64,000 bases of DNA from Schmidtea polychroa (lineage: Eukaryota). A model generated the notes under the pieces. It worked only from the letters and a program-made list of their open reading frames with translations. It had not been told where the DNA came from and did not search any database. The stretch's first letter is position 1; the number at the start of each line of letters is the position of its first letter. The DNA lies in NCBI GenBank assembly GCA_044892525.1, contig CM097885.1, forward strand, positions 17,672,001 through 17,736,000, given 5' to 3'. A program made the translations under genes and the position numbers. Shown here piece by piece: positions 1-63,059 of this stretch.

Positions 1-310
1 CTGAAGCTGCAGCACTATCATTTTCACTAGGAACAGGAGCAACCTGATCAGCTGTTCTTTCTAAATCACTTGTTTTAGATTTTTTAACAAAGTAATTTGT
101 TAAAGTAGAATTTTTTAGTTTTCTTTTCTCGTTATTCATCTTCACAAAATATTATTTAAACAAATTTTAAAATTAACATTAAACAGAAATTAGACTTTCA
201 AGTTCAAGAGAAAACAAAAAACAAAAAAAAACACGTTTGAAAATTTAAAAACTCGACTGTTTGGGTCCCGCAATTATTATTATTAGTAATAGAAAGTACA
301 TTATCATTAT

Positions 311-370
<60 letters not shown>

Positions 371-400
371 CAGTAAACCCCCCCCCTGCGTACGCGCATG
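1..400 (-). mobile_element. Probable 5' end of a hAT-like DNA transposon running out of the window
   Basis: Minus strand begins CATGCGCGTACGCAGGGGGGG at 400. An ORF from ATG ~139 (MNNEKRKLKNSTLTNYFVKK...) runs off the left edge. The partner end is not in the window. Confidence 0.35.
318..364. repeat. (TA)n microsatellite
   Basis: Direct reading. Confidence 0.95.
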
Positions 401-1006
401 CTAGCAAAAGATTTTTTGAAGGCTAACAAAGTAAGTTTTTTAGATCAAATAGAACAATATAAATTGTGGTGTAAAATAGTTGCACTTTACTTTCACAATT
501 TTTCTTTTCAATACTCTTTTTACCAACCTTTGATCACATCGGGCTAACCAAAATATGTTTGGTTATTGGGTTGGTGACAGTATTTGTAAATTTAAATGTT
601 CACTCTGACTCCAAAGCGTGTTTTATTAATTCACAAATTGACAATCCCGAACAAGATGAACCTTTATTAATGTTTACAATAAATCGTACAAATTGCAATT
701 CTTAATTAACAGTGACCTTTGTTTTAATTTCTTGTTTGTTTTCCTTTATTTGATTTATCTTTCTCATTTCACATTTCTTTTTACTTTAGTTTTCTTCGAG
801 TTCCCATAGATCGTCCCGTTTGTCATGACGATCTCCCCCAGGTAATATACTTATTTATTATACTTTTTGTTATTTAGGTAACCTCAACACAATATAAAAA
901 TAAATATACGTGAGATTCAGTTAAATTAATGAAATTTGCAGAAGATTCAAAAATTCATTTGACATTACATTTTCGTATAGTAAATGGCTAATTCAGATAT
1001 TATTTC

Positions 1007-1587
1007 AGTAGGGTAATGTGTGGACCCGGGAACAAAGAACTAATACGTAACCAATGACGTCACAAAGGGAAATTACGTAATACCCTCGTGGGGGGTTTTT
1101 TTTAATTTTAATTTTTTTTAAAAAAATTACATAACAGAGACATATTACATAACAAAGACATATTACGTAACAAAGGAAAAATTTTAAACAAAGACATTTG
1201 AACAAAGGCACATGACTCATCATACTTTTTTCAATATATTACGTTGCGGTATTTTAAAATTTAATTATATTTTAATCATTAAATATATTACGTTGCGGTA
1301 TTTTAAAATTTAAATTTATTTTAAAAACTTATTTTGACGGTTAAGTTGACAAAATAAAATTATTGCACATACTTTGCATTATCATATATATAGTCTATCA
1401 GACAAGATATTCTGTTCCCCTGTGGGTAATGGTCACAAAGGTAAAGGTCACAAAGGTACTGCTAAAACTTTAACATATTATTACACAATGTATAAAAAAT
1501 AGTATTAGTGTCCACACATGGTCATGCAACAAGTTAGTGTTCCCATCGATAGCTCATCTTAAAGTCTAGTGTAAGATTTATCTAATG

Positions 1588-1645
<58 letters not shown>

Positions 1646-1656
1646 ATTGGTAAAGA

Positions 1657-1708
<52 letters not shown>

Positions 1709-1913
1709 ATTATTTTTTTTATTATTATTTTTATTAATATTATTATTATTATATAGTCCGAGTCTATCCGACAAGATATTCTGTCCCCCTATGAATAATG
1801 GTCACAAAGGTAAAGGTTACTAATGTACTGCTCGCAAGGGTACTGCTAAAAATATTCAAGACAAAACTTTAACAAAGAAATTCTAAATATTATACTTTAA
1901 ATATACACTCAAA
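1007..1913 (+). repeat. Left TIR of Polinton A
   Basis: Matches the reverse complement of ~40978-41836, including the embedded (TTA)n tract. Confidence 0.9.
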
Positions 1914-2195
1914 CTAAAATTTATTAACACATTCACATTCATCATCTCCACGTTTCATAACATTTTCAACAACATGATCTATACAATCGCTATATACACG
2001 CGTTTCAGTATCCGTAAATTCCTCCATAGGTTCATCAATTTCTTGAATACTTTCCTCGTCATCTTGAGTGTTTTCTTCATCAGTTTCATCAAATCCCGAA
2101 TCTTTACTCTCTGCTACCCACTCTATATTTAATGCATTTGTCACATGTAATATATCTTCCATTTTCACACCAGATATTTCTGCTAATTTTTCCAA
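1914..2195 (-). CDS. Small acidic hypothetical protein of Polinton A (possibly a last exon)
   Basis: 93-aa E/D-rich ORF with a non-ATG start. Its 3' part recurs at ~16165-16240. Confidence 0.4.
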   Translation of the reverse strand: MEKLAEISGVKMEDILHVTNALNIEWVAESKDSGFDETDEENTQDDEESIQEIDEPMEEFTDTETRVYSDCIDHVVENVMKRGDDECECVNKF

Positions 2196-2378
2196 TAAAA
2201 AGTTTATTACAAATTCTAAATATTAAATAATTCAATAATTAACTAATCATATTAACCTTTTTCTGTAGTTATTATTATTGTTATTTTAAAACTATAGTGT
2301 ATATTTGTTTATAGAAAATATAGAAAATGGGCGAAAACAAATATAACTAAATGCATTTATTAAATACAACAACATTTA

Positions 2379-2798
2379 TTAAAATGTCTGTGAAAGTCTA
2401 GCAGACATAATTTTCCAAATTGGAGAATACACATCATTATTATCAACTTTATATCCTAGGATTGCAATTGTTATATACCAATTTTCATTTTCTTTGAAGC
2501 TGATTTCATCAAAGGAATCATAAAATCTTGCATATCGGTTGTTGAAAAAACCATGATGATTACATGATAGATTCGTATTCAAACGTTTGAAAACCTCATC
2601 AATAGATTTAATATCTATCATTGAAAGTGTGCCGGATAAGAATTGAAATTGGGTAGGAATTAGCTTGATCGGTGACACCAATTTCATATTGATTTCTTCT
2701 TTTAAAAAATACATTTTGTAGTTATGGAACATTTGAACAGGTTGTACAAGTTCTGGAAGAACTTTTGGTTTTTCAGTGGTTGAAAATTTCTTTGTCAT
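2379..2798 (-). CDS. Hypothetical protein of Polinton A
   Basis: 139-aa ATG ORF of normal complexity, with TATA-like and CCAAT-like motifs upstream (~2835-2870). Confidence 0.5.
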   Translation of the reverse strand: MTKKFSTTEKPKVLPELVQPVQMFHNYKMYFLKEEINMKLVSPIKLIPTQFQFLSGTLSMIDIKSIDEVFKRLNTNLSCNHHGFFNNRYARFYDSFDEISFKENENWYITIAILGYKVDNNDVYSPIWKIMSARLSQTF

Positions 2799-2973
2799 CG
2801 TGAATTATGATTAAAATGAAATGGTATAGGGTTTTTATACCTATGACTATAGTTTATCATCCAATCAGATTGCTGCATGTCTTTGTTTTAATTGCAATGA
2901 TATCGCATTGATATTGCATTGATATTGCATTGGCACATGTTTTATATTATTAAAATTATTATTATTATTATTA

Positions 2974-3531
2974 TTATTGTTCATGTTTAAATTCAAGATC
3001 ACGAATAATAATTTTATTTTTGAATAATAACAATTTGTCCATGTCAATACCATAAGATAATGCCATCATTGAACAACCTAATGGTCGCATCTCAGTTGAT
3101 TGGGTAGAAAGCTGCTTAATATCCGCAATAGAACGACATATTATGTCGCAAGGCATTTCATATCCATGTTTATATCTAAATCGACCTGCTTCCATTTGTG
3201 CACGACATACTTGAGATCGATAATCAGGGATCATACCAGTCATAACACCTCCAGTACTTTCAGTAATATTAAACAATTTTGTAGCTGAACTTTTCTCAAT
3301 CATTTTATCTGGAACCTTTCTTTGTGTAGCTACTACATCAGAATTATTGCATCGAATACCCACGGAAATCCGTCCACCAAATAAATTTAATATTAGTTGG
3401 CCAAAAACACCATTAAAGTTATCAGGATCTCTTGGGATCATAAAAATGGAACCATCAGTTTCGTTGGTAGTATTTCCAATTTCCATTGAGTTATCAGATT
3501 CATAAATTTCTTCATTAAAAGCAGCCATCAT
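2974..3531 (-). CDS. PSMA6-like: Proteasome subunit alpha type-6-like fragment inside the 3' LTR
   Basis: TQRKVPDKM, LFNITESTGGVMTGM, FRYKHGYEMP and TEMRPLGCSM match PSMA6 (TQKKVPDKL, LFKITENIGCVMTGM, WKYKYGYEIP, AEMRPLGCCM). Homologous part ~3019-3378, native N- and C-termini missing, first ATG at 3531. Confidence 0.85.
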   Translation of the reverse strand: MMAAFNEEIYESDNSMEIGNTTNETDGSIFMIPRDPDNFNGVFGQLILNLFGGRISVGIRCNNSDVVATQRKVPDKMIEKSSATKLFNITESTGGVMTGMIPDYRSQVCRAQMEAGRFRYKHGYEMPCDIICRSIADIKQLSTQSTEMRPLGCSMMALSYGIDMDKLLLFKNKIIIRDLEFKHEQ

Positions 3532-3819
3532 TAACAACTCTTTCCTTAAATCGAAACATAACTCATCCAATACAATCGATCGATAAAAATCTAAATCTAA
3601 AAATTAAATTACAACCAAACTAATTAATAAATATTGCCATACTTCTTGCTCGCGTCTGTGTGCGCACACAGCCAAAAACAAAGAAAAGAAAAGCGCACAC
3701 AGACGCGACACACCAACAACCCAACCCAAAAAATGACATTGCTCGCGTCTGTGTGCTCACACAAACCTATCACACAATACAACGCGCACACAGACGCGCA
3801 TTGAGCTCATAATTCACCA
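2978..3819 (-). repeat. 3' LTR (842 bp)
   Basis: TGGTGAATT...CATGAACA. Differs from the 5' LTR by a few substitutions and a ~93-bp indel near 3670-3760. Confidence 0.92.
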
Positions 3820-3833
3820 TCCTCCCCCCCCTT
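3820..3833 (-). promoter_or_regulatory. Polypurine tract
   Basis: AAGGGGGGGGAGGA directly abuts the TG of the 3' LTR. Confidence 0.9.
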
Positions 3834-3919
3834 GACACCTTAGTGTCAATCTCAAATCCCCATCAGCTTCTCCTTCTTCTTTTATACTCAAACATAATTT
3901 GAAGATACATTCCCGTGTC

Positions 3920-4077
3920 AGTTTATCCCTTTTCCCCTTCATTTCTTCCACTTCCCTCGCCATTTTATCCCTTTTCCCCTTCATTTTCTGCATTTCCCTC
4001 GCCATTTTATCCCTTCTCCCCTCCATTTTCTGCATTTTCCTCGCCATTTTATCCCTTTCCCCCTTCATTTCCTGCAT
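3920..4077. repeat. 42-bp tandem repeat (~3.5 copies)
   Basis: Repeating GCCATTTTATCCCTTT..CCCTTCATTT unit, giving a 14-aa periodicity (RDKMAREMQKMKGK) on the minus strand. Confidence 0.85.
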
Positions 4078-4157
4078 TATGGCTCAATCTCCAATAACCC
4101 TCACACACCCATCTTTGTATTATATAAGCCGCCGCACCACGCACCTTTTTTGAAAGA

Positions 4158-4715
4158 TCAAAAAAAAAAAATTCTCCACCCACCATCGCTATACTCGGCC
4201 AAGCAGCTGTCCCTGTTCAGTTTGATTAGGTGTAATCTCTCCATTATTCTTTCTCCCTTTTTCGCCAATTCCATATTCCACACTTTTCCCTGTTGCATTT
4301 CATTTAGTGACCAGTTTTCACTTAATGTTTTTATAAGCATCCTACAAAGTCGTTCTTTGATTGCTTCGTGTTTCGATTCCCCAATCGACACCTTGTCTTT
4401 CATGTGCATCTTTTGAGGCGTGCAAGCGAGTTCCAGTGACCCTTGTTGTTTTAAACTGTTCGATGATTCGTTCAATTTTTCCAAAACTTCTTTGGCCCCT
4501 TGATCATTATCACGTACAGTTTCCCATGATTTCCCATATACCATACTGGTCTCCTTGTTTTGCCTCTCCCCTTTGGAGTCTTCTGCCCCTTTTACATTAT
4601 CACGTTCTTCTTTTAGTCGATTAACTTCCCCTTCGTCGACCTGAATATCATTAACCGCCGCCTCGGGCGTTAAATCCTCTGATGTTGATTTGTCTTTTTC
4701 CCAATTACTCATCAC
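4158..4715 (-). CDS. Charged hypothetical ORF downstream of gag
   Basis: 185-aa E/K-rich ORF with no recognisable motif. Confidence 0.35.
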   Translation of the reverse strand: MMSNWEKDKSTSEDLTPEAAVNDIQVDEGEVNRLKEERDNVKGAEDSKGERQNKETSMVYGKSWETVRDNDQGAKEVLEKLNESSNSLKQQGSLELACTPQKMHMKDKVSIGESKHEAIKERLCRMLIKTLSENWSLNEMQQGKVWNMELAKKGERIMERLHLIKLNRDSCLAEYSDGGWRIFFF

Positions 4716-4846
4716 TTACGTTGTCTTCGGTTCCACAATTTTATCGTCGGATAATTTTATGATCTCACCAGCCCGGCAAGCCTCATCTTGCTTTTCCCCT
4801 GTATTCATTTTTCCTTGAACATTTTGTGTGATTGTCATAACGTTAA

Positions 4847-6571
4847 CTAATTCGTTAGTTCTTCCAGAATTGAATATTTGCCATCTAAATGACTCTGAGC
4901 TCCTTGCTCTTCATTAGATGCCTTACTCCTGTGGAGTGGCGTGTCCTCAATTCCTCGAGATGCCCGTAACTCGTCATTGAACATTTCAGTTACCGCAAAA
5001 TAACTCTGAACCGTCCTCATTGATGCGTTTTCATTTAATAATTCGTTGTGTCTTTGCTTACATCCGGTAACCTTGCAGAAAGATTCTTTACGGCATTCCT
5101 TGGCCATGTGATTTCTTTTGAAGCAATTCCTGCACAGTTTCATTTCTTCGATGACTCTCTTCCTTTCTGAAATTGTGAGTTGCTTAAACTTGTCACATTG
5201 GTCTAGGTAATGTTGACCACCACATTCTACACACTCTGATCTATAGCCGTTAGAGTTATTCACCTGTATAACCGTTCCACTTTTAACTCTGCCATTTGGT
5301 TGCCCCGTAAAATGCGTCCGACCTCCTGGATTGAAGCTTTCTCTTTCTCTAGACACACCTTCTACTCTTGGCCCATCATAAGTCCTGGTGCTTGATTGAG
5401 TCCCATACACGACCTCGTTAGTGGACCTTAGGATCTCCGCTTCTTGTTGTATCCATCTTCTCAAATCCTCTATCGTCTCCCGCAATTCCTTTTCTATTTT
5501 CTCTTTCTTCCATTTATACACAAGATCCGTTGTTAACTTGCTCAAACACTTTTGAAAAAGATATCCAGTCTTTAACTCGGTTTCTTTCCCAGTGGATTTA
5601 AATCGCACGGTGACTGTTTCTAATAATCCAACAAATAAGTCTAGATCCTTCAAATCTCCTTCTCGAATTGGCCTGAACTTGTCCATCTCCTCTAACATTG
5701 ATAAATATATCCTTTCATCCCCACCATATATCCTATCCAACTTCTCTTTTGCCATTTGATAAGCCTCTGCCGAATATTCTAGATTTTCAATTAACTTTAA
5801 TGGCTCTCCGTGAAGGTACTTGTGCAGGTGAAACATCTTTTCAACCTCATCACCTTCCGCTTCGTCAACACACGCCGTAAAAGCTGCTTTGCATGGTTCG
5901 TACTCTTTCATCTTGCCTTCAAAAACAGGGATTGTAATTTTCTGTAGACTTTCCAGTTTTCTTTTATGCACGGAATTATTCTTCTTGAAGGTATCATCAT
6001 TCACATTTTCCTTCTCTTCCATAACAGATTGATTTGCTTTTCTTTCCATCAATGCCCCAATCATTTGATGTTTTTCCTCGATCTCTTGCAGGTCTTTATC
6101 TAAGATTGCAGTGATGTCCAATCTTTGCAATTTTTTACTGATCGTTCTCAGATCCCCTAATTCTTCATCTAGACTCTCCTTTTGATCTTCATATTCCGCC
6201 AACCATTCGCTAACATCCTTCCCATTTATATCATTGAGAATCTTGTTTCTCAATCTCGTTAATTTTCCTTTTTTCATTCTCTTTTTCCACAGTCCTTCTT
6301 CTAAAATCTCTTCGTCATTGCCCCCGCACAGCCTGAGTGACAAATGAAGTGTCGAACCTACTTGTATCCTATAATCGTTCAATCTTCTTCTATTTTCTAA
6401 TTGCTTTCCTGCGTGTACTAACATTTGATAATTTACCGGAATTCCTTCTTTGTCCTGGATTTTTCCTTTTACCTTTTCAATTGTGTCGTTCCATTCAACA
6501 TCAAGAGTAATTGTCTTACCAGTAAGAGTTTTGACAAATATTTGACTTTCCCATCGCAACTCAAAACCCAT
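4847..6571 (-). CDS. Ubiquitin-Gag fusion (ubiquitin-like domain + BEL/Pao-type Gag with zinc knuckles)
   Basis: [14 protein letters not shown]...[12 protein letters not shown] (6544-6320). Then a coiled coil, a DUF1759-like region (KITIPVFEG...[14 protein letters not shown]...[10 protein letters not shown]) and Cys/His motifs [27 protein letters not shown] and [14 protein letters not shown]. First ATG at 6571. Confidence 0.9.
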
Positions 6572-6845
6572 TACTCCGCTCGCCCTCACCCTTGACTCAT
6601 CTCTGTTCTTTACCCTGATCCCCTGGCTTCCCCCTTTAAAAAAGTGCTGGGGCCATAGCAGCACTTTCCCACGCTCGGTAGGGAAGGGAGGATGATTAAT
6701 TTTACAAAAATAAAGTTCAAATAAATGAAAATAAAATTTACATCACCCTTGATGATTAATTTTACAAAAATAAAATTCGAATAAATGAAAATAAAATTTA
6801 CATCACCCTTGATCAGCCGGGCTGTCTCCACTGAAACATTGGTGC

Positions 6846-7433
6846 CTAGCCCCCTGAAGGGAACCATGCTCTGCTACCATGTTCATGTTTAAATTCAAGA
6901 TCACGAATAATAATTTTATTTTTGAATAATAACAATTTGTCCATGTCAATACCATAAGATAATGCCATCATTGAACAACCTAATGGTCGCATCTCAGTTG
7001 ATTGGGTAGAAAGCTGCTTAATATCCGCAATAGAACGACATATTATGTCGCAAGGCATTTCATATCCATGTTTATATCTAAATCGACCTGCTTCCATTTG
7101 TGCACGACATACTTGAGATCGATAATCAGGGATCATACCAGTCATAACACCTCCAGTACTTTCAGTAATATTAAACAATCTTGTAGCTGAACTCTTCTCA
7201 ATCATTTTATCTGGAACCTTTCTTTGTGTAGCTACTACATCAGAATTATTGCATCGAATACCCACGGAAATCCGTCCACCAAATAAATTTAATATTAGTT
7301 GGCCAAAAACACCATTAAAGTTATCAGGATCTCTTGGGATCATAAAAATGGAACCATCAGTTTCGTTGGTAGTATTTCCAATTTCCATTGAGTTATCAGA
7401 TTCATAAATTTCTTCATTAAAAGCAGCCATCAT
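6846..7433 (-). CDS. PSMA6-like: Proteasome subunit alpha type-6-like fragment inside the 5' LTR
   Basis: Second copy (one K/R difference). Reads through the LTR end and PBS to a stop at 6846. Confidence 0.85.
   Translation of the reverse strand: MMAAFNEEIYESDNSMEIGNTTNETDGSIFMIPRDPDNFNGVFGQLILNLFGGRISVGIRCNNSDVVATQRKVPDKMIEKSSATRLFNITESTGGVMTGMIPDYRSQVCRAQMEAGRFRYKHGYEMPCDIICRSIADIKQLSTQSTEMRPLGCSMMALSYGIDMDKLLLFKNKIIIRDLEFKHEHGSRAWFPSGG
6862..6879 (-). promoter_or_regulatory. Primer binding site, initiator tRNA-Met
   Basis: TGGTAGCAGAGCATGGTT immediately after the 5' LTR, complementary to the animal tRNAi-Met 3' end (...CUCUGCUACCA). Confidence 0.88.
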
Positions 7434-7628
7434 TAACAACTCTTTCCTTAAATCGAAACATAACTCATCCAATACAATCGATCGATAAAAATCTAAATCT
7501 AAAAATTAAATTACAACCAAACTAATTAATAAATATTGCCATACTTCTTGCTCGCGTCTGTGTGCGCACACAAACCCATCACACAATACAACGCGCACAC
7601 AAACGCGCATTGAGCTCATAATTCACCA
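6880..7628 (-). repeat. 5' LTR (749 bp)
   Basis: Direct repeat of 2978-3819 with TG...CA ends. Confidence 0.92.
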
Positions 7629-7775
<147 letters not shown>

Positions 7776-8179
7776 TAAATAATCAAAAAAACGTGGCAAT
7801 GATTTAATAATACAGAAACGCCAACTCAATAAATTCAACATAAACGCGATATATTTCAATTGTACAACAATCTTCGTCAGGCAGCAATCTGGATAATCAA
7901 TAATAAGACATAAAATATGCAATATCTAAACAAATTAACTAATAATAATCATCTCCAAACTGTATCAAAAATTTTAAAAAAATACAAAAAAAAATATTTA
8001 AAAAAAAAACCAAACCATATTTTACATGGCCCCACATACATATTATTTTAAAAATGAAATTTTAATTTAATAACATTCAACATTCAACATAAAATTAACA
8101 AATTTAAAAAAAATTACATAGTTTACAAAACACAAACATAATTATACCACAAACACGACTCCCAACCTTCAACCTTCAA

Positions 8180-8516
8180 TTACTTAAACACATTCAAAAT
8201 CTCCGTGGAACGGGCAACTTGATCATTTATTTTTGGATTTAAATATCTAATCAACAATGCCTCACAAGTTACTCGTTCCCAATAATTACTTAAACCTTTT
8301 GAAATAATTTTAAAATCAGAGATACCTATTTTTTTACTGACACATTTCCTAACATGATTACTAATATTAGTCAATCCTTTTGGTCGACAGTGTTCAAGAA
8401 CTCGGGTGCAGAGATGACGGGCAGTCTCTCCAATGTATGTGGCATTACACCCATTACATGAAAATTGATACACGAGCTCAGAACACAAACCAATTGGCGT
8501 TGGACATTTACTAGTA
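8180..8516 (-). pseudogene. Penelope-like element 3' fragment, GIY-YIG endonuclease
   Basis: LVYQFSCNGCNATYIGETARHLCTRVLEH...SNH...EALLIRYLNPKIN is the PLE-type GIY-YIG with CxxC. Confidence 0.88.
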
Positions 8517-8743
8517 TGCGTACGTCTGAATCTGAGGTACCTATTGATCCTGAGGAAAGTAGTATGTTAAATTCGGAAAGTGACAAGAATCGATCCAATC
8601 GCATGGAGCCGAAATATGTGTTAGTATTGCCTTATTCTGAGGGTTTCAGAGAATTTAAACATAAAATTCTCAAATATGTAGACAAGGATCAATTCAGGAT
8701 TGTTTCCACTTCTTGCAAAGTTAGCAGTATGTTTACTAGTAAA
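8517..8743 (+). pseudogene. Inverted upstream piece of the same Penelope ORF (RT-EN linker)
   Basis: KYVLVLPYSEGF...VSSMFTSK joins in frame to TSKCPTPIGLCSELVYQF once the segment is re-inverted. Confidence 0.7.
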
Positions 8744-8887
8744 TCCCAGAGAAATGTATTGATAATTCGAAAATCCAGATTCTGGTTTCATTGTAAATTA
8801 AGTTTGGGATTATTGCAACATCTCGATCTTTGAGAATATCATACATTTGCGGGTAATAAAAATACAATCTTTCCAGTATTATTGCAA

Positions 8888-9300
8888 AGTAGTGAGAAGT
8901 GAGGAGTATAAACCAAGCCAAAAATGCAGTATTACGTAATATCTGTATGGGTACCATGGGGGTGGTTTGGTGTTACATAATTTTGTAAAATTACGTAATC
9001 ACACATAAAATGACGTAATTATATTTTTTGATTACGTTATAATTGATTTTTTAAATTTACGTCATAATTGACCCCCCATGTAATAATTGACCTTTGACCT
9101 CTTACATAATAATTAACCTTTGACCTCTTATATAATAATTATACTTCATTAGAGTAGTGAGGAGTATAAACCAAGCCAAATATCCCTGGAAAAAATTCAA
9201 TACATTTTGATAGAGTAGTGAGAAGTGAGGAGTATAAACCAAGCCAAATATACAGTATTACGTAATATTTGTATGGGTACCTTGGGGGGTGGTATGGTGT
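8888..9300 (+). mobile_element. Orphan Polinton-type terminus in three direct copies
   Basis: AGTAGTGAG(AAGTGAG)GAGTATAAACCAAGCCAAA at 8888, ~9153 and ~9214, followed by TTACGTAA/TGACCT-rich sequence resembling other TIRs here. Confidence 0.6.
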
Positions 9301-9545: not shown

Positions 9546-10010
9546 TTAATTAAGTGATAATAAAAAATCTAAAAATTCTTTTCCTTCAATTATTGATTTA
9601 ATTTCAGATATGATATTATCAACTATACATTTGTAATCAATATTTTTTATTCCAAGAATTACTATCTTACCGCTAGCTAATATATTTACACACATAGGGT
9701 TATATTTTATATATCTCAAAGCTGGAAATAATTCTGGTTCGTAAAAGCATGGTATTAATTTAGCCAATTTATTTAAATTACAAGAAAAACCTATATCGGA
9801 AGTTACGGTTATCGATTGTATTTCTAAATCATAAACATTATATTCACTAGCTTTGATTATTTCCTTACACCCCATAATTCTATATTTACCAGTTTTGAAA
9901 TATATTATTGGATATTTTTTACTTCTATTGATAAGTTGTTGCGGTTTCCCCATTGGAAATACCATTTTTGATACATCAGCTTTTGCCCTGTAATTTATAT
10001 TTGAAAGCAT
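9546..10010 (-). CDS. TBP-like: TATA-binding-protein-like protein of Polinton A
   Basis: Two TBP repeats: IYFKTGKYRIMGCK, then IQSITVTSDIGFSCNLNKL...YEPELFPALRY...VNILASGKIVILGIK (compare TBP YEPELFPGLIY...LIFVSGKVVLTGAK). Confidence 0.85.
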   Translation of the reverse strand: MLSNINYRAKADVSKMVFPMGKPQQLINRSKKYPIIYFKTGKYRIMGCKEIIKASEYNVYDLEIQSITVTSDIGFSCNLNKLAKLIPCFYEPELFPALRYIKYNPMCVNILASGKIVILGIKNIDYKCIVDNIISEIKSIIEGKEFLDFLLSLN

Positions 10011-10118
10011 TTTAATGAAATAATTATAAAAACTCTGTTATATATATATAGTTATTTTAAAACGGAGTTCATTTAAATTATCAATATAAACAATAATTAT
10101 ATAGTTTAAATTTAAAAA

Positions 10119-10757
10119 ATGGAATTACGAAATGATGCAGTATACCAAATCGTTGGTCCAAGTGGTAGCGGAAAAACATTATTTGTTTGTAAAGTACTAA
10201 AATCAAATTTGTTCAAAACAAAATTCAACAATATTTATTGGCATAGGGGCGCCGATGAAGAACACGAATTGGCGCAATCAAGTCTCTGTCAGTTGAAAAA
10301 CATGAAAATAGTAAAGGGTTATGATAAAAACTGGTCAAGTCGTTTGAAAAAAGATGATGTCATCATTATCGGTGATTTGTATCAAGAAGCCAATAAAGAA
10401 ACGGATTTTAATAATTTATTCACAAAAATCAGCATACATGTTGGAGTAACAGTTATTTTCATAACACAAAATCTATTTCATCAAGGTGGTGCACATCGAA
10501 CACGTAATTCAAATGTACAATATTTAGTTATTTTCAAGAATCCTAGAGATGCAACTGTCATTGATTTTCTTGGACGACAAACATACCCTAATAACCGTAA
10601 TTTTCTTATCAATGCATTTCAAGATGCTACGAAAATACCTCATGGGTATATATTTTTCGATTTCACACAACAATGTCCTGATGATATACGGGTAAAAACA
10701 GATATTTTCAACCCAAAAGGTGCCATGGTTTATAAACAAAGTTCAAAACAAATTTGA
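10119..10757 (+). CDS. Polinton DNA-packaging ATPase (A32/FtsK-HerA type)
   Basis: Walker A GPSGSGKT, degenerate Walker B (IIIGDL), FITQNLF and YLVIFKNPRD motifs. Confidence 0.92.
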   Translation: MELRNDAVYQIVGPSGSGKTLFVCKVLKSNLFKTKFNNIYWHRGADEEHELAQSSLCQLKNMKIVKGYDKNWSSRLKKDDVIIIGDLYQEANKETDFNNLFTKISIHVGVTVIFITQNLFHQGGAHRTRNSNVQYLVIFKNPRDATVIDFLGRQTYPNNRNFLINAFQDATKIPHGYIFFDFTQQCPDDIRVKTDIFNPKGAMVYKQSSKQI

Positions 10758-10770
10758 AAACATATAAATA

Positions 10771-11265
10771 ATGTTTTCAAAAACAAGGATATCGAGTAAA
10801 AAACAACCAAAGGTTCCACCAACAACTAGTTATACTCCATCGAAAGAACTTATTACAGAAAATTTTGCTGCAATGAATCTTATTTCGAAAAATCCTAAAC
10901 CTAAACCTAAAAGTAAAACCACTAAGAAAGTAAAAGTTGTTAAAAATCATCGGAGTTTCCCGTTTTTCAATACATTGTTAAAGGCAACAAGTATGAAAAG
11001 AAACAGTATTTTGCAATCATTTCAAAATTATGTTGTCGATGATTTACTCGATATTATACTTAAAGTAGTCAAAGGCAAGATTAAAATCAGTAAATCTAAA
11101 AAGCAATTATTGAGTAAACATAGGAAACCTTTGCTATCATTAGTAAATAATAAAAATCGTCAACAAATGAGAAAAATTATATATAAACAACAAAGGGGAT
11201 TTATCGGTGCATTGATACCTTTAGCAATAGCATTATTAGGTGGAATAATAGGAAGTCAATCATAA
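10771..11265 (+). CDS. Basic Polinton virion/core protein
   Basis: K-rich, with a C-terminal hydrophobic RGFIGALIPLAIALLGG, positioned between ATPase and integrase. Confidence 0.65.
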   Translation: MFSKTRISSKKQPKVPPTTSYTPSKELITENFAAMNLISKNPKPKPKSKTTKKVKVVKNHRSFPFFNTLLKATSMKRNSILQSFQNYVVDDLLDIILKVVKGKIKISKSKKQLLSKHRKPLLSLVNNKNRQQMRKIIYKQQRGFIGALIPLAIALLGGIIGSQS

Positions 11266-11326
11266 ACAATGGGTGTTAATCCTTCATTACCAGACATTAA
11301 ATTTAATATTAAATCTTCTTACTGTA

Positions 11327-12465
<1,139 letters not shown>

Positions 12466-13234: not shown

Positions 13235-14270
13235 CAGTAGATTTCGCTTATAGAGAACTTGCTTAAAGAGAACAAAATCGGTTAAAGAGAATTTTTTGGT
13301 TTAAAAACGGCATTTACCCCAATTTTTCAGTGTAAATGTTCTCTTTAACCGATGATCGGTTAAAGAGAACAATTTTTTATTTTGGGTTTATTTTTTTCGA
13401 AATACAGTTTATTTTAGACAGTAAACATATAATTTAATTATTTTTGTTTTAAAAAGGTAATTGATTAAATGGTAACCTGATTAAAGGTTATTTGATTAAT
13501 TGAAAATATTATTTTACTTAAAAATTTTAGGCCATAATGAAATCAAGTTCTAGGACAATTCTAACACTCAAACAGAAATTTGAAATCATAGCACTTTTTG
13601 AGAAAGGAGAAAGCCAAGCATCATTGGCCAGAAAATATAAAATATCACCTTCATCAATATCAAACATTTGTCACAAGAAAAGGGAAAAAATACTTGAGGC
13701 CTACAGTTCCAGGCCTTCGTCAACCAAGAAACTGAAACAATCTTTTCATGATGATTTAGATATTCAGTTAAGGCATTGGTATTTGCTGCAACGATCCAAA
13801 AAGATTCCCATTAACAGTGTATTACTTATTGAAAAAGCTGATCAAATTGCCAAATACCTAAAGATTCAAGATTTTACTTGCACAATGAGTTGGATCCAAC
13901 GTTTTAAAACTCGGCATTCTCTTGTTTTCGGATCTATTTCTGGAGAAGCTGGTGATGTAAATAATGAGTTGGTGGCGTCGTGGCTTAAAAATGAGTGGCC
14001 GGAAATTAGGAAAGGTTATGGTAACAAAGATATTTTTAACTGGCCATTTACAAGAAAGTTTAATAGCAATTGAATCAGATTTGGAGAAGATTTTACTCAA
14101 GAAAAAAACCAGGCAACGGAAAATAACTGAGTTTATTTTCAAAAAATAAATGTGTTATGTAGTTAGTAAAATTTTTTGAATATTTTTAAAATTATCCTTA
14201 TTAAAAAGTATCGGTTATAGAGAACATTTTTTCAAGTCCAAAAAATGTTCTCTTTAAGCGGTATCTACTG
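13235..14270 (+). mobile_element. Tigger/pogo-type DNA transposon, internally deleted
   Basis: TIRs CAGTAGATTTCGCTTATAGAGAAC / GTTCTCTTTAAGCGGTATCTACTG with a TA duplication. Confidence 0.92.
13537..14073 (+). pseudogene. Tigger transposase N-terminus (CENP-B-type HTH domains), DDE core deleted
   Basis: LTLKQKFEII...LARKYKISPSSISNI and WIQRFKTRHSL...SGEA. Truncated at DIFN and joined to a C-terminal tail. Confidence 0.88.
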
Positions 14271-25718: not shown

Positions 25719-25875
25719 TAGAATATAAATATAAAAAAAATAAAAAAAAAATAAAAATAAAAATAAAAAAATAAAAAAAATAAAAATAAAAAAAAATAAA
25801 AATAAAAATAAAAATAAATATATAAAAATTTAAAATTTAAAAACAACGTATCCAGTAAAAAAATTTTTTCTAAAA

Positions 25876-28800
25876 ATGAATTGTAATATTTGCAATAAAG
25901 TTTTTAAAAATAAAACAGGATTAATTTCTCACTATAAATCGAAAGCTCACTTACTAAAAGAAAATAATCTTAATGACACAAATTCAAAAGTTTGTACTAA
26001 ATGTAAAGGAAGATTTCTACATTCTGGATATAATAAACATTTTGAAAATTGTATCGGGAAAAATAGAGAAATATTTACATGTCCTCATTGTAACTTTTCA
26101 ACAAAACTAAATTTCTATTATTTAAGACATTTAAAAGAATGTAAAAATAAAAAACAAAATTCTGACGTTGAAGAATGTCATTCAGAAGGAGAACCTGATC
26201 ATGTTGAAAGAGAAAAATACAACTGGGATGATTTTAATCATATAGATGAATTTCAATTAAAAATTAATGGACCTGCAACCCCTGGAGAATATATAAGGAG
26301 AAATAAAAAAAATATTAAAAATTCTTTCACTGAAGCTTTAAAAAATTATAAACCAACAAGGTATAATGTTATAAAATATAAAATTACAATCAAAGCAAAA
26401 TATTGGAGAGGACCAGAAGAAAAGACAACTCCTTTAGATGTTGAAATTGGAATACCTTTTAAATATTTATTTTCAACTAGAGGATTTAATAAAAGCATCA
26501 AAGAAATAATTCAAGCAGTAGAAGCAAAACAAGAAGAGGTTGAAAATGAATTAGGAGATTCAAACTTAGTATTCAACTCTTTCCAAACTTTAGTGATTGA
26601 TTATTGGAGAGGATTACCACCTAATCCTAAATCTTATATTCAAACACCCTTTAGATCTAGGGTTGTTATAAATGTACAGAATAAGGATAACAAATGTTTC
26701 ATGTGGTCAATACTTGCATATTTACATCCTCAAGCTGAAAACCCTCAAAGAGTTTCAAAATACAAACAATATGAAAATGAATTAATATTTCCCAAGGGAT
26801 TCACACACCCAATGAAACTAGAAGACATTCCAGAATTTGAAAAACTAAATAATCTTAAACTTAATATTTATGAACATGTTAAAGGATGGGGACATGGAAG
26901 GAAAGATATTATTCCAATTTATATTTCTGATAGTGATAGCACGAGGGAGATATATCTTTTAATCTTGGAAGAAGGAAATAATCAACATTATGTTTTAATA
27001 AAAGACTTTCAAGCTTTTACATCACCAGAGAATCCAACTAGTGGAGGAGGAACATGTAAAAGATGTCTTCATTATTCAACAACTAAAAACTCTATGATTA
27101 AACATGCAAGATTTTGTGAAAAAGATGATCCAGCTTTAATTAGAATGCCTACAGATCCCAGGATGTATTTTAAAAACTTTACAAATTTATTACAAACATT
27201 AGGAGTTGTCTATGGAGACTTTGAATCTATAAATCGTAAACAAGATATAATTATGCAATATTTAAAAATAATAGAAAAATATAAACTCATGGATGAATGG
27301 AAAGCCTCTAAACAGAAGATGAAACCAGAGAGGATGAAAGCCTTTCTAAGAAAAAGAAATAAACCTAATAGTGTTAAAAAAACTAAACAATTACCATCTG
27401 CTTATAAATTATTATTTAAAAGTAATTATAGAATCTAGAGAATATGCATTTCAAGGAACTTCAGAAGATGTTTTAAATCATTTTACTAAAAGTATAAATG
27501 ATCTAGAACATGAAATATTTAAAATATTAAAAACAAAGTATCCTCAAAAAATTTCTAATCAACAACAACAAGAATATGAAAATACTTCCAACTGTTGGAT
27601 GTGTAAACAAGACATTCTTCCTGATGATAAAGTTATAGATCACGATCATTTAAAAAAGGAAAATAATTATCGAGGAGCAGCCCATAGAAATTGTAATCTT
27701 AATTGTCATACTCCTAAATTTGTACCAGTTATATTTCATAATCTTTTTGGTTATGACATACATCTATTTATTAAACATTTAGCAGAAAATGCTAAAAACT
27801 CTTTCAAAGTTATAGGACTTACAAAGGAAAAATATAAATCAGTTGAATATGGAAAATTAAAATTTATAGACTCGTTAAACTTTCTCAAATGTCTCTAGAT
27901 GGAATAGCTAAAACAATGAAAGCAGAAAATTTTAAAATCACTCGAGAATTCTTGGAAAAAAATAATATCCCCCAGAAGAATATCCTACATGCTTAGCAAA
28001 AGGAATATATCCCTATGACTATGTTGATTCATTTGAAAAATATAATGAAACAAAATTACCAGAGAAAGAAGATTTCTATTCCCAACTTCAAAAATCTCAT
28101 ATTACAAATCAAGAATATTCTCGAGCAAATAAAATGTGGGATCTTTTCAACTGTAAAACTTTAGGAGAATATACAAGTATGTACTTATCCCTAGATGTTT
28201 ATATTCTAGCAGATTGCTTTGAAGAATTTACAAAGTCTTTTGTTCTTAAACCTTATAATTATATAACAGCTCCTTCTTTAGCTTGGGATACTATGTTATA
28301 TACCATTTGGACTTCAGATCTTCCAGAATCTGATAAAATTATAGATCTTTTAACCGACCAAGATATGTTTAATCAAATTAAAACAAACATTAGAGGAGGA
28401 GTATCTTCAGTAATGGGGAATAGAGAAATAAAAGCTAGAAATGCAATAACTACTAGCCGAAGAATCTCTAAACACCCTGATCCATATATAAAACTTAACA
28501 ATGAGGAACTAAAAGAAGTATTAGAAGGAATGAAAAATCCTCTATTTATACTTTATATAGATGCAACAGCTTTATATTCAGGAATTATGACTCAATATTT
28601 ACCAATGAGTGACTTTCAAGAAATATACTCCTCTGAAGGACTTCCAGAAATAGAATGCCCTCCAGAAGAATATTTAAAGACTCTTATGAATGAAATACTT
28701 TCAACTCCTAAAGATTCTCCAATAGGATACTTTGTAGAATGTGACCTCGACTACCCAGATGATATAAAATCAGGAACAAGACATTTCCCTTTAGCTCCTA

Positions 28801-30200
28801 TAAGAAGAAAGATTGATATCAACGAACTTTCACTCTGGCAAATCTCACAAGATAAACCTCCAACAATGAAACTTCTTTGTGATCAAACAGATCGAACTTA
28901 TTATCTTTGTCACTATAGACTCCTCCAGTTTTATCTTTCACAAGGAATGATATTAAAAAAAGTTCATAGTGTCATAAGATTTAAACAAGCAGCATTCATG
29001 AAGACTTTCATCGAGGAGAACATTCGTTGTCGAAACATTGCAAAAAGAGAAGGTAACCTTTTAAAAGACAATAATTATAAACTTTTAAACAATTCAGTCT
29101 TTGGGAAGACAATGGAGAATGTTGATAAATATACTCATATTGAACTCCTAACAAATACCCCGAAAGATATAGCCCGTTATAATCGTATGCTAGGAAAGCC
29201 TACATTTAAAAATGCAGAAGTATTTTCTGAAAATCTTACTGCAGTAGAACTACAGAATTTTGAGAAAACATATAATAAACCAATATTTATCGGCTTTGCA
29301 ATTTTAGAACTTTCAAAATTACAAATGTATGAAACATATTATAACATCTTACAACCTATATATGGATCGAATATAGCAATGCATGCAATGGATACAGATT
29401 CAATGTTTTTAACAATAAGAACTCACGATTTACAAAGTGATATCTCTGAAAATCCTATACTTTCAAATTTAATAAATTCATCTGGAGAATTATTTTCGTT
29501 TAAAGATGAAAAACCTTTTACTCCTATAGAAAATGGAATATTTATTCGTGCTAAACAATATTCATATGAAACATTTACAAATCCTAAATTTGAAGAACAT
29601 TCATTTATATTTAAAACCCCAGAAACAGAAGAAAGCATTACACATAGATATCCTATATTCCCTAAAGGACCTGACGGACAGGGAGAAAAACCTGTAAAGG
29701 ATAACAGATGTAAAGGAATTCAGAGATGTGTAGCAAAGAATCTTTCTCATCAAGATTATATAGATACATTGAATCCAAATCATAAAGATAAAATTGATGA
29801 AATACATCAACTTAAAAGTGAAAAGCATGATATTTACTTGATAGAATCCCAAAAAGTATCATTATCAAATTATGATGACAAAAGATTCATACTAAGTGAT
29901 TTAAAGACAACTCTTCCTATAGGAAATAATTTAATACCGATAATAAAAAATCTTGATAGATTGAATCAGTTATATGGTACAAAGATTACTGATCTTGATA
30001 TTTATAATGTTGAAATCATTTATCCTGAGAGAATTGAGAAACCTTTATATTCTCAAGTTTTTAATCCTATATGTTTAGAACTTAAATATTTTAATACTGA
30101 TCCTGAATATATAAAAGGTCTAAGTGATAAAGAATTTAAAGATCATAAAGAGGTTCTAAAAACTAATTTCGAAAAGTTAACATCAGATTCTATCAAATGA
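25876..30200 (+). pseudogene. Protein-primed family B DNA polymerase of B (frameshifted)
   Basis: N-terminal C2H2 fingers, INVQNKDNKCFMWS, VYGDFES, EndoVII-like DHDH...YRGAAHRNCN, FHNLFGYD, YIDATALY, KLLNNSVFGKT, MDTDS, CKGI, YDDKR. Frame breaks near 27430 and 27895-27980. Confidence 0.95.
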
Positions 30201-30274
30201 TTTTTTTCTTTTAAAAATGTCAACAATTAATTTAAGAGTGACAACATCAACCTTTTGAAGGGCAATAAATTTTT

Positions 30275-30895
30275 TTATGTATGATTCTTTAGCCACTTCT
30301 TTCGTTTAATTTTTTTAGAATATTCATTACTTATAACATTAGCACTTTTTAATCTTATAACCTCATTTTTAATATCTTGTATTATTTGATTTGATTTCAT
30401 TATTTCTTCGTCTGTTAGGATTCCATCTTCCAAAGCTTTTAATTGAAATAAAAATAATTTAGAGATTCCTAATTCTATTGATAAACAAACTTCTCTATAT
30501 AAACTTTTCTTTTTAGAAGTATAAGATAATGAAACTATTTCAGTTAAGAAACCATCAGCTACAGAAATACTTCCAAGTATTACAGGTGCAAGAGTAACAA
30601 CTGGTAAAGTTATGGGTAAAATAACTGTTAATATTGCAGATGCAAATCCTAAATAATAACCTATAACTTTTAAAACTGTATTCCCTTTATTCCATCTATT
30701 TTTAATTTTTTTATAATGCTTTAATAAATCTTGTAAATGTAAGGTTTCTGATTTAAATTCTTTTACTCTCATAATTTCAAGTTCTGTGGGAGCCGAGGCC
30801 TTGGAACCTTTGTGACCTTCGGAATAATATCTTGATGACAATTCTGGGTAAATTTTTTCTTCTCTTACTTCTTCCATCTTTTGGACTTTGTCCAT
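30275..30895 (-). CDS. Polinton putative membrane protein
   Basis: Central hydrophobic hairpin and KALEDGILTDEE motif. Conserved in E (61775-62386). Confidence 0.7.
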   Translation of the reverse strand: MDKVQKMEEVREEKIYPELSSRYYSEGHKGSKASAPTELEIMRVKEFKSETLHLQDLLKHYKKIKNRWNKGNTVLKVIGYYLGFASAILTVILPITLPVVTLAPVILGSISVADGFLTEIVSLSYTSKKKSLYREVCLSIELGISKLFLFQLKALEDGILTDEEIMKSNQIIQDIKNEVIRLKSANVISNEYSKKIKRKKWLKNHT

Positions 30896-30903
30896 TTTAA
30901 TAA

Positions 30904-31908
30904 TTAAAAAAATAAGACTTTATTCTTCTGAGCACCATCTGGTACCAATACTCGGATATCAAAAGAAACTCTTGTTGAGAGAATATCTTTATACAATTCT
31001 CTCAATGCTTTACGAACTTCATCAACATCAACCTTTTTTTCATAAAATATTAAATCTATATATTGTACAAGTGTGCTTTTAAAAATAATATTCTTACTTT
31101 TAACTTTATGTAGTCCATGTGAATGAGTATTAACATACCAATCTCCGTGTGGTAAATCATAACTAGTCATTATAACATCACCCTTTTCAAGCTTACTATT
31201 ATAATCACATTTCACAAACCATTTCATTCTTTCATTATCATCATCAAACAAAAAGAAATAAGGATCAATAATCTTTACAACCATAAAAACACCCCATTCT
31301 TTACTGTTTGTTGTTATTAAACTTGGTTCTATAAAATGTTTATATGTATGGGGTAATAATGTTTTATTCTGTTCTAATTCAGCAGCTCTTTTTCTAATAC
31401 TATGTGTGGTGTTAATGTGTGTTCCATGAGACTTTAAATTTGAAATTCTTTTATTAAATGATGTAATCATCTCATTTATTATATTATATATTGTATTAAA
31501 TTTAGTATTCATAATTTGTTTATCTTTAGAATTTAATATGCTAGTATTTAACTTTACAACTTGTTCAGTTAACAGACTTTGTAACTTGTCAAATTTATCA
31601 TTAAATCGTTGTTCGATATTATTAAGCTTTGATTCCATTGAATCAATTTTTGTTGTTAATGAACTTTCAATTCTTGTTGTTGTTAAATCAGTATATTTTT
31701 TAACACCATCTACATATTTCTTATTAACTGCATCGAGATTATCAACTGGAAAAGATAAATCTTTTATCTTGTGTGCATTCATACTTAAATCACTCTTCAT
31801 TGAATCACCTCTTTCATTAATATATTTATTTTCTGTTAAAGTTAATATGTCTTCTGTATCAACCCCAATTGTTCCTCCACCTTTATTACATGGAATATAA
31901 GAACTCAT
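30904..31908 (-). CDS. Putative fibre/spike-like protein
   Basis: GDSMKSDLSMNAHKIKDL..P....DAVNKKYVD (tail-fibre/trimeric-adhesin-like motif), then a coiled coil and a globular C-terminus. Adjacent to penton and conserved in E. Confidence 0.6.
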   Translation of the reverse strand: MSSYIPCNKGGGTIGVDTEDILTLTENKYINERGDSMKSDLSMNAHKIKDLSFPVDNLDAVNKKYVDGVKKYTDLTTTRIESSLTTKIDSMESKLNNIEQRFNDKFDKLQSLLTEQVVKLNTSILNSKDKQIMNTKFNTIYNIINEMITSFNKRISNLKSHGTHINTTHSIRKRAAELEQNKTLLPHTYKHFIEPSLITTNSKEWGVFMVVKIIDPYFFLFDDDNERMKWFVKCDYNSKLEKGDVIMTSYDLPHGDWYVNTHSHGLHKVKSKNIIFKSTLVQYIDLIFYEKKVDVDEVRKALRELYKDILSTRVSFDIRVLVPDGAQKNKVLFF

Positions 31909-32012
31909 TTATTAGGGGATTAAAATACTTAAGAATTCCTCTCCCCCTTTGTACACTTCGTTAGTCCTTCTCCGCCTTCTCCCTTTTAGTCCTTCTCCCC
32001 CTTGTGACTTCC

Positions 32013-32768
32013 TCAGACCTGTTTCAAATGTAAATACATTGAAATCTCTTCTCCATTAAAATCAATCAATTCTCCTTCTTGATTAAGAATTTTAAAATTA
32101 ATATCCATTATATATTTTCTACATAAAGGTAAATAATTTGGAGGATTCATTCTTTCAACTATTTTATATCCCATAGGAACTGTGTTTGAGGGAAAGGAAT
32201 ATAAAACATTTGTTTGTTTACCATTATTATAAGAACCAGTTATACAATCGCAATGAATATTTATTGTGTTTGTATTTATTATTTTTATAATATTTTCTGA
32301 TGTAACTACAGGTGTGATATAATGGTTTCGTGTAAATCCTAAAATTGTTCTAAAGAAACTATTATTTTGAAAATGAATTCCTATATTCTCTAAAGTCATT
32401 ATACATTTTGAAGTTGGTAAATCCATTTTAATTTTAATGACTCCATTTGTTTTTTTAGAAAGTATATTATTTAAATCTTTTATCTCATAAGCTCCGGGTT
32501 CGATTGTTATTATAATCTTATCTGTAGATTTTGGGCTTATATAATAAAATATGTTATTATCTTTAGTTATATTAAAAATAGTATTATAAGCACAAAACCA
32601 TAATAGTCCTAATTCATAATTTAAATTTTGATCTAATTTAATTTAATCTTGAAAGTTTATAGTAAAGTCTGATTCTTTTGAATTTATAGATAAAGTTCTT
32701 GAATATTTATCTGACATTATGTTTACCATTTTTTTTAAATTATCTTCCGGAAGGTTGCGAAGCTCCAT
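32013..32768 (-). pseudogene. Polinton B minor capsid protein (penton) with premature stop
   Basis: Collinear with intact 59967-60731, but FQDSIK has become FQD*IK at ~32644. INIHCDCITGSY...LIDFNGEEI motifs. Confidence 0.88.
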
Positions 32769-32770
32769 TT

Positions 32771-33202
32771 TCATAGTATAGATTTTAAATCATTATAAAT
32801 TTCTTGGATTAAGGAAGTGAAACCTTCTCCTTTGGATTTATTCAATCTATACAAAACATATAAGCTTAAAATACCACATATTTTAGTATTATTAGGTTGA
32901 ACTTGTAAAGAATTAAAAGTGTAGTCCGAGAGATAGTCTTCAACTTCTTTAGTGGGTTTAATCCCAAAAGAATCAAAGTATATAGATTTATTATATATAC
33001 AAACCCAATGAGATCCTTTTTCATTTGAATTTTGATAATTTATAATGATATTCTTTGGAGTGTCTTCTTTCAGACTCGACAATTCATCATTCATTAATAT
33101 TTTTATTTTTAAATTTAAATAATCTGCATAATCTTTTAAATCAAAATTTGTTTTTGTATTTATTCCAAATGTTTTTAAAAAATCTAATATTGAAGGAGTC
33201 AT
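32771..33202 (-). CDS. Adenain-like cysteine protease
   Basis: GSHWVC, YFDSFG and QVQ...CG motifs. Confidence 0.92.
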   Translation of the reverse strand: MTPSILDFLKTFGINTKTNFDLKDYADYLNLKIKILMNDELSSLKEDTPKNIIINYQNSNEKGSHWVCIYNKSIYFDSFGIKPTKEVEDYLSDYTFNSLQVQPNNTKICGILSLYVLYRLNKSKGEGFTSLIQEIYNDLKSIL

Positions 33203-33224
33203 TTTATATTTTATAACTTTGTAT

Positions 33225-34022: not shown

Positions 34023-34044
34023 TTTAATGGTATTAAAAATGGTA

Positions 34045-34647: not shown

Positions 34648-34662
34648 TTTATAATAAATAAA

Positions 34663-35442: not shown

Positions 35443-35453
35443 GGCTTGTCGAC

Positions 35454-36842: not shown

Positions 36843-36871
36843 TTTAAAAGTTTTTTTATGGGGGAATCTAC

Positions 36872-54343: not shown

Positions 54344-54399
54344 TTACATAATATATTTAATTAATCCTATTGTGTGTGTGTAAATTTTAATATATAAAA

Positions 54400-55692: not shown

Positions 55693-55709
55693 TATTTTAA
55701 CATTTTAAA

Positions 55710-57118: not shown

Positions 57119-57129
57119 GTCGACAAGCC

Positions 57130-57921: not shown

Positions 57922-57936
57922 TTTGTTTATTATAAA

Positions 57937-58515: not shown

Positions 58516-58537
58516 TACCATTTTTGATACCATTAAA

Positions 58538-59431: not shown

Positions 59432-59453
59432 ATACGAAGTTTCAAAATACAAA

Positions 59454-59918: not shown

Positions 59919-59966
59919 GGATTTTTACTATAAGGATTTTTACTATATGAATTTACTACTAAAGAA

Positions 59967-60731: not shown

Positions 60732-60755
60732 AGATTCATTTTAAATTATTAATAA

Positions 60756-61766: not shown

Positions 61767-61774
61767 TTATTAAA

Positions 61775-62386: not shown

Positions 62387-62480
62387 AATGGGTGTATTTT
62401 TAAAAAAGTAGATCAGGTTGCTATAGTTGCTTAAATTAATTGTCGACATTTTATTATTAAAAAATTAAATATCGTTGGTT

Positions 62481-63035: not shown

Positions 63036-63059
63036 TTTATAGTATTAAAATTCTAATTC

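Follow-up and report, generated by a model that had tools for sequence, protein, structure and literature searches.

Why does each long terminal repeat (LTR) of a retrotransposon in the genome of Schmidtea polychroa contain an open reading frame (ORF) for part of a proteasome subunit, and what might the element gain from it? The element lies on the minus strand of the window, the stretch of 64,000 nucleotides of DNA analysed here, and the ORF within each of its LTRs matched the Pfam family Proteasome (E 7e-23), with PSMA6 as the best match among solved structures.

The element and the origin of its LTR cargo

The element had a total length of 4651 nt (Table 1). The repeated 5′ part of the LTR was 93 nt shorter in the 5′ LTR than in the 3′ LTR, and the two LTRs differed at 2 of the 692 positions compared; the window element is a young copy. 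The target-site duplication was weak evidence of insertion because the site is a simple repeat, and a clearer duplication was found in the relative L042. Many LTR copies of the family, like the window element, were flanked by ATT/TAA or AT microsatellites, a possible target preference. The primer-binding site (PBS) presumably corresponds to the initiator Met tRNA. A purine-rich 42-nt tandem repeat (3910-4077) was located upstream of the polypurine tract. The internal ORF (4847-6742) encoded ubiquitin and then a Gag with DUF1759, and its Gag DNA was 95.8% identical over 1701 nt to that of the Gag-Pol relative L098. No pol was found among the ORFs and Pfam matches of the internal region, from which it has been deleted, and Pao-type pol domains, from protease, RT, and Peptidase_A17 to integrase and DUF5641, were found in L098, L100, and L279, which had at least 95% of the Gag DNA in common with the window element. 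By its LTRs, PBS, purine tract, DUF1759, and pol, the family is classed as a BEL/Pao LTR retrotransposon, an assignment made through Pfam domains. The window copy itself is a non-autonomous element with a broken LTR-Gag fusion. Positions 1-9128, flanks included, recurred 56 kb upstream with 100% identity (L278, L002; G000:C1:17.616-17.625 Mb); this twin was rejected as an independent insertion because its flanks are identical too, and it arose either by segmental duplication in the very recent past or as a duplicate made in the assembly.

Table 1. Positions in the window of the features of the LTR element
Feature	Position	Strand	Remark
5′ LTR	6880..7628	-	749 nt, TG...CA ends
3′ LTR	2978..3819	-	842 nt, TG...CA ends
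Target-site duplication ATTAT	2973..2977, partner 7629-7633	.	within ATT microsatellite
Primer-binding site (PBS)	6862..6879	-	read as codons in the LTR frame
Polypurine tract	3820..3835	-	next to 3′ LTR
Acidic leader, first ATG at 3531	3373..3531	-	probably from zinc-ribbon/RING cargo of sister LTRs
Spliced PSMA6 piece, 3′ LTR copy	3018..3382	-	host codons ~33-153; 91.8% to host CDS; Pfam PF00227
PSMA6 piece, 5′ LTR copy	6920..7284	-	same piece as 3′ LTR copy
LTR-initiated ORF, 5′ LTR	6846..7433	-	leader, PSMA6, and PBS read-through; stop 11 codons past LTR end
AATAAA, likely poly(A) signal	3013..3018	-	41 nt before LTR end; also in 5′ LTR
Diverged ubiquitin unit, Gly-Gly end	6320..6544	-	adjoins Gag; Pfam PF00240, E 1.3e-21
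BEL/Pao Gag	4847..6319	-	DUF1759 at ~5501-5923; Cys/His knuckles

The window also contained other mobile sequences. Two inverted Polinton/adintovirus-like elements (25834-38167 and 54391-63044), whose longer matched arms were 92-99% alike, encoded a protein-primed PolB, a double jelly-roll capsid, an A32 ATPase, and an integrase fused to a phospholipase A2-like domain. At 9546-12312, a TBP-like ORF (PF00352, E 7.9e-13) stood head to head with the ATPase and integrase ORFs of another Polinton-like element, the integrase being interrupted in frame by an ATT microsatellite, and a fragment of a CENP-B/Tc5 DNA-binding ORF was located at 13531-14073.

A donor search with the PF10584 profile gave 80 matches, and 35 loci were inspected. 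L056 was an intact host PSMA6 gene with three introns and a product of 246 residues. The piece at 3018-3382 aligned without gaps to the spliced coding sequence of L056 with 91.8% identity over 365 nt, spanned its exon 2/3 junction, and lacked intron 2, the loss of introns that is expected of an LTR-mediated retrocopy. At the protein level, 99 of 119 residues were identical to the host protein (residues 34-152 of 246), and a Pfam scan of the LTR piece did not detect PF10584, the N-terminal alpha signature. A fragment of residues 34-152 would be without the helix at the N terminus and without the half of the sandwich that is formed by the C-terminal part. Longer sister pieces (host nt 36-562) were without introns 1 and 2, and flatworm PSMA6 gave the best protein matches to such a piece. 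A 23-mer across the spliced junction occurred 520 times in the genome, with no occurrence of its reversed control, so that the genome contains at least 520 spliced PSMA6 pieces. In the copies listed, the pieces graded from host nt 36-562 (94-98% identity) through 96-489, 96-460, and 145-460 to 155-460 at 85% identity. Among 49 single loci picked by the junction pattern, two had a PBS and most of the others ended at a flank; these look like solo or 3′ LTRs. These results bore out what the first-pass annotation had proposed, namely that a piece of spliced PSMA6 mRNA, open and intron-free in both LTRs and without its N- and C-terminal parts, had been retro-captured and left behind in solo LTRs. 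Dispersed, degenerate pieces of another proteasome alpha gene (L036, L047, L050, and L055), whose DNA is unrelated to the PSMA6 LTRs, are possibly another cargo family.

The acidic leader had been described as novel, a description contradicted by its match to L258 (89.5% over 124 nt, E 1.8e-43), where it corresponded to the middle of a cargo with a zinc ribbon and a RING domain. Pfam assigned this sister cargo to PF14369 and zf-RING_2, both under the curated cut-off, and we take it to be RNF115/RNF126-like. The RING cargo and host PSMA6 share 9 nt exactly at the junction of leader and PSMA6, microhomology of the kind expected at a switch point, observed at the one junction examined. At least 150 copies of the RING cargo were found in the genome; in this LTR subfamily (L254-L272, L311-L330), the LTR ends inside the RING domain and the usual AATAAA tail is missing. 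Searched as DNA, the leader matched LTR copies, and PSMA6 came next at 29 of 30 loci. A pattern search of the genome found no host donor gene of the RING cargo, and each of the best 20 among 113 PF14369 loci was either a copy of the LTR type or could not be resolved as a host gene. The sister cargo thus points to a RING-type donor of the leader.

The reading frame across the primer-binding site

The LTR ORF had no stop within the LTR; its stops were located in the flank (2974-2976) and behind the PBS (6846-6848). The stop that breaks the fusion in the window copy was present in 3 of 38 copies with the same type of spacer, two of the three being the window element and its twin. In nine two-LTR relatives fetched by spacing, the LTR frame crossed the PBS, and in four of them (L097, L098, L103, and L104) it went on through ubiquitin into Gag. 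The fused ORF of L098 had 1683 codons and included Proteasome, ubiquitin, DUF1759, protease, RT, and Peptidase_A17; those of L097, L104, and L103 had 916, 813, and 486 codons, respectively, and further fused ORFs of 1421 and 1157 codons were found in L279 and L280. In the other five relatives, the fusion was broken by stops, shifts, or an insertion. The frame had previously been viewed as a free-standing gene of the LTR, a view that does not hold for an ORF without a stop of its own that forms the front end of a ubiquitin-Gag ORF in relatives.

The exact 20-mer joining the LTR end to the PBS marked 356 junctions in the genome, of which the first 30 were sampled, including four copies of one tandem array as well as the window element and its twin. 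Upstream of the PBS, the frame was open for at least 100 codons at 24 of 30 junctions, and at none in each of the other frames. Downstream, it was open over this length at 17 of 30, and on both sides at 15 of 30; in the remaining 15, as in the window copy, the fusion was not open for at least 100 codons on both sides. In a second set, consisting of 30 of the 38 copies with the spacer type of the window element, 15 copies were open for at least 100 codons upstream, against 0 and 1 copies in the other two frames; ubiquitin was in the frame of the PBS in 17 of the 24 copies where it was detected. The LTR end could be located in 100 of 110 copies and had the same codon phase in 95 of them. Among eight LTR length classes with two or more copies, seven showed that phase without adjustment; the eighth, with 2 copies, did so once two 1-nt alignment gaps were counted in each copy. 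For seven independent changes, the probability of this phase arising by chance would be 4.6e-4.

The ubiquitin unit before Gag ended in LSLRLCGG in 22 of 24 sequences of the window lineage, the other two being masked at the end, and in the second set the Gly-Gly end was kept in 16 of 20 copies and the last Gly lost in 4. Elements of a second Gag lineage, which shares this PBS region, had from one to three ubiquitin units and LGLAGG before Gag; in L213, L221, and L222, LRLRGG stood between the units, and the first unit of L213 had no starting Met. The final ubiquitin ends in LRLCGG or LGLAGG, not in LRLRGG, which, like the loss of the last Gly, counts against a cut at this point. Ubiquitin in frame, with Gly-Gly directly before the protein to be released, likely lets Gag be cut free. 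A similar layout was found in a single copy of a Gypsy-type element (L277:1-8208; G000:C1:19.587-19.595 Mb) with DUF7041 Gag, protease, RT, RNase H, and integrase: its frame started in the LTR with a KIAA0319_N/PAN piece, crossed the PBS, and, after one stop, reached a ubiquitin-like Gly-Gly unit and then Gag. When relatives of the ubiquitin-Gag fusion were sought beyond this genome, the 120 matches listed of 724 were polyubiquitin-like and none of those listed carried DUF1759, which is no proof of absence. In both BEL lineages and the Gypsy element (L097, L213, and L277), the open spacer encoded a long hydrophobic stretch before ubiquitin, which may be a membrane anchor or just the product of AT-rich codons.

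PSMA6 was missing from 14 of the 30 sampled 5′ LTRs. Pfam searches of 17 chosen frames, together with earlier ones, identified EAP30/SNF8, Ras, LIM, DSPc, Adaptin_N, HSP70, RING, ClpP, and myotubularin cargos, often joined as in-frame mosaics of several genes, and three LTR cargos had no Pfam family. The SNF8 cargo was 94-98% identical to the host gene L156 and began at an internal Met codon of that gene. In L161 and L164, PSMA6 was trimmed to ~30 codons, and L161 remained open into Gag. In the second Gag lineage, a DEAD fragment, presumably eIF4A-like, was located in the spacer, outside the LTR (L199, L202, and L216).

Of 30 LTRs of the family, 26 had an AATAAA no more than 70 nt from the LTR end, compared with 7 of 120 control windows, which puts the cargo upstream of a likely poly(A) signal. 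This position and the codon-phase evidence together suggest a long R region. The start of transcription, the R/U3 boundary, and translation of the LTR frame are predictions that we draw from sequence.

Probable selection on the frame and the alternative explanations

Removing segmental duplicates and the second LTR of loci already represented, and discarding two split hits and one identical copy, left 110 of the 128 distinct PSMA6 segments; the 110 still included two LTR pairs of single elements and had been sampled partly by similarity. Relative to the host coding sequence, the variants private to one copy comprised 184 nonsynonymous changes, 58 synonymous changes, and 19 stops (19 of 261). 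The corresponding numbers were 46, 17, and 0 for variants in two copies and 92, 34, and 0 for variants in three or more. The absence of stops from the 126 shared variants differed from the private proportion (P 6.5e-4), whereas the nonsynonymous-to-synonymous ratios, 184/58 for private variants and 92/34 for those in three or more copies, did not differ (P 0.53). The indels comprised 19 frame-shifting and 5 in-frame in single copies, three of each in two copies, and none in three or more. The PSMA6 part was intact in 75 of 110 copies.

Under the MGK+F1X4 model, omega of PSMA6 was 0.87 in 104 sequences including the host (P 0.19 against 1) and that of the spacer was 1.25 (P 0.40). Lower values were obtained with the same model for ubiquitin (0.59, P 0.012), Gag (0.51 and 0.43, P 7e-4 and 7e-5), and RT-RNase H (0.43, P 0.017). 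For the PSMA6 piece of 12 full-length, PBS-bearing copies, omega was 0.57 with MGK+F1X4 (P 0.03) and 0.37 with GY+F3X4, a model that gives lower values for PSMA6 and yielded 0.59 for all 104 sequences. The pN/pS of host PSMA6 was 0.54-0.60 against L097, L100, and L138, and 0.90 against the window copy. Amino-acid change in the PSMA6 piece was thus near neutral, with possible weak constraint in full-length copies. Stops and frameshifts have been purged. The best reading is that the frame is selected and the cargo dispensable.

An untranslated passenger would also be open in young copies: cargo in U3 or the leader could look intact as a recent coding capture, and a young capture starts out with an open frame (Tan et al., PMC5131818). 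An in-frame ATG at 6571, just before ubiquitin, was present in the lineage of the window element, so Gag could start there instead of in the LTR, and the fusion is broken in many copies. Such a passenger, however, would be expected neither to lack stops among 126 shared variants, nor to keep its phase after repeated tail deletions, nor to join multi-gene mosaics always in frame, and the AT-rich spacer, which looks non-coding, was open for at least 100 codons at 17 of 30 junctions. We consider this explanation very unlikely. A function of the PSMA6 piece as a protein, either as a dominant-negative alpha subunit, as suggested earlier, or as a module that binds the proteasome, appears more improbable still, although 75 of 110 copies are intact over this part, omega falls to 0.57 (P 0.03) in the 12 full-length copies, and the RING E3, SNF8, ubiquitin, and HSP70 cargos all belong to pathways of protein turnover or sorting. 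The piece is half a subunit (residues 34-152 of 246), its private and shared substitutions have like ratios, host and window copy give a pN/pS of 0.90, and in successful subfamilies it has been cut to ~30 codons (L161, L164) or replaced (none left in 14 of 30 LTRs).

A role in camouflage, in which the LTR fragments of essential genes are kept because small RNAs directed against the element would also strike host mRNAs such as that of PSMA6 and so blunt silencing, the open frame being a side condition, seems unlikely as the principal explanation, yet less so than the two above. Spliced PSMA6 junctions number at least 520 in the genome, 126 of 335 31-nt windows of the LTR piece differ from the host mRNA by a single mismatch or none, the cargos come mostly from housekeeping genes, and precedents are described in the captures of nxf2 by TART and of piwi and aub (PMC13534243) and in siRNAs from captured genes in maize (PMC13317346). 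Against it, the cargo drifts to 85% host identity and is trimmed and replaced in successful subfamilies, the cargos identified are not silencing genes, and the codon phase at the LTR end is left unexplained. Small-RNA cross-talk with host PSMA6 is possible on sequence similarity, and camouflage is compatible with translation of the cargo, so the two are not exclusive. The evidence set out above argues for the PSMA6 piece being translated, which we regard as probable, within an exchangeable N-terminal extension consisting of cargo, PBS, spacer, ubiquitin, and Gag, with a predicted cut behind ubiquitin.

A proposed mechanism and its relation to known systems

For a translated extension of this kind, we propose that the Gag reading frame would begin in the LTR, in captured host sequence. 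During early minus-strand synthesis, in a long R that precedes the poly(A) signal, microhomology would guide a template switch onto an mRNA packaged together with the element; this would place that mRNA into R, and the normal duplication of the LTR would then fix the new cargo at both ends simultaneously. The 5′ copy would be translated into Gag, while the 3′ copy would form an untranslated tail. Selection would hold the frame open, because with a stop the cargo would become an upstream ORF at the expense of Gag-Pol. Gag might be freed at Gly-Gly by deubiquitinases of the host or by the element's own protease, and any cargo would be tolerated because of this proposed release.

Coding sequence within or across an LTR has several forms. 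The sag gene of MMTV and the nef gene of lentiviruses are fixed in U3 and are read from the 3′ end, and GAG of Ty1 starts in the 5′ LTR and has a coding PBS, a short native overlap without host cargo. LTR-mediated retroposition in animals, as described by Tan et al. (2016, PMC5131818), captures partial spliced mRNAs through template switching at short microhomologies, and those retrocopies have multi-gene chimeras and further rounds of retroposition in common with the present family. In that description, however, the retrocopies replace part of the internal ORF, whereas here the cargo is inside the LTR, at both ends, and persists in Gag-Pol elements and hundreds of solo LTRs, in frame upstream of Gag. 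Bs1 of maize is an LTR retroelement whose chimeric ORF is made up of fragments of several host genes (PMC5131818, PMC13317346); as described there, it has 1-5 copies, fixed junctions, and internal cargo, unlike the many interchangeable LTR cargos and the ubiquitin before Gag found here. A parallel in layout to the ubiquitin unit is provided by cytopathogenic pestiviruses, in which captured ubiquitin, with cellular sequence upstream, stands directly before a viral protein in the polyprotein, and in BVDV host hydrolases cut behind ubiquitin to give an authentic N-terminus (PMC8310069, PMC13517609). In that RNA virus the processing is described as experimentally shown and the rearrangement as an evolutionary dead end; the present layout belongs to a stably inherited retrotransposon with a diverged ubiquitin tail, and its cleavage is predicted.

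Within the retrotransposons, the account of BEL/Pao families in PMC3118150, which includes planarian ones, gives a DUF1759 Gag, protease, RT, Peptidase_A17, and DUF5641 integrase in a single Gag-Pol frame between TG...CA LTRs. The LTR-initiated frame, the host cargo, and the ubiquitin are extra here, and the word ubiquitin is absent from its main text. The giant Gypsy elements of planarians, Burro/GYPSM1, encode a polyprotein with host-like domains, including ubiquitin/SUMO-like ones (PMC6431247); in those elements, the additional domains follow an N-terminal Gag within an ORF of 5000 residues and do not represent recent captures of mRNA in the LTR. The main text of PMC11410931 gave no match for ubiquitin, BEL, or gene fragments. 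In the literature searched here, we found no description of exchangeable host cargo in LTRs that is read into ubiquitin-Gag. What is known is gene capture by LTR elements; what appears new is an exchangeable cargo within the LTR, read toward ubiquitin-Gag.

We give about even odds to a wider interpretation, in which the LTR would be a self-duplicating cassette for exon shuffling: translation would start in captured mRNA and cross the PBS, ubiquitin would free Gag by means of host deubiquitinases, and the family would continuously sample the transcriptome, make chimeric host fragments, and scatter hundreds of cassettes of promoter plus ORF, a solution that BEL/Pao and Gypsy elements would have reached independently in one genome. 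The captures known from LTR elements are rare events, for the most part internal and usually a dead end; here capture is routine, located in the LTR, and compatible with elements that encode Gag-Pol. The ubiquitin break-point before Gag suggests how a retroelement might tolerate foreign coding sequence. Annotation, read mapping, and the design of RNAi in this animal will be misled by the spliced copies of PSMA6, SNF8, and a RING gene, which are nearly identical and number in the hundreds. The family is also a possible and testable origin of small RNAs that target housekeeping genes, and it offers a natural series in which template switching, and the choice of mRNAs that are co-packaged, can be followed.
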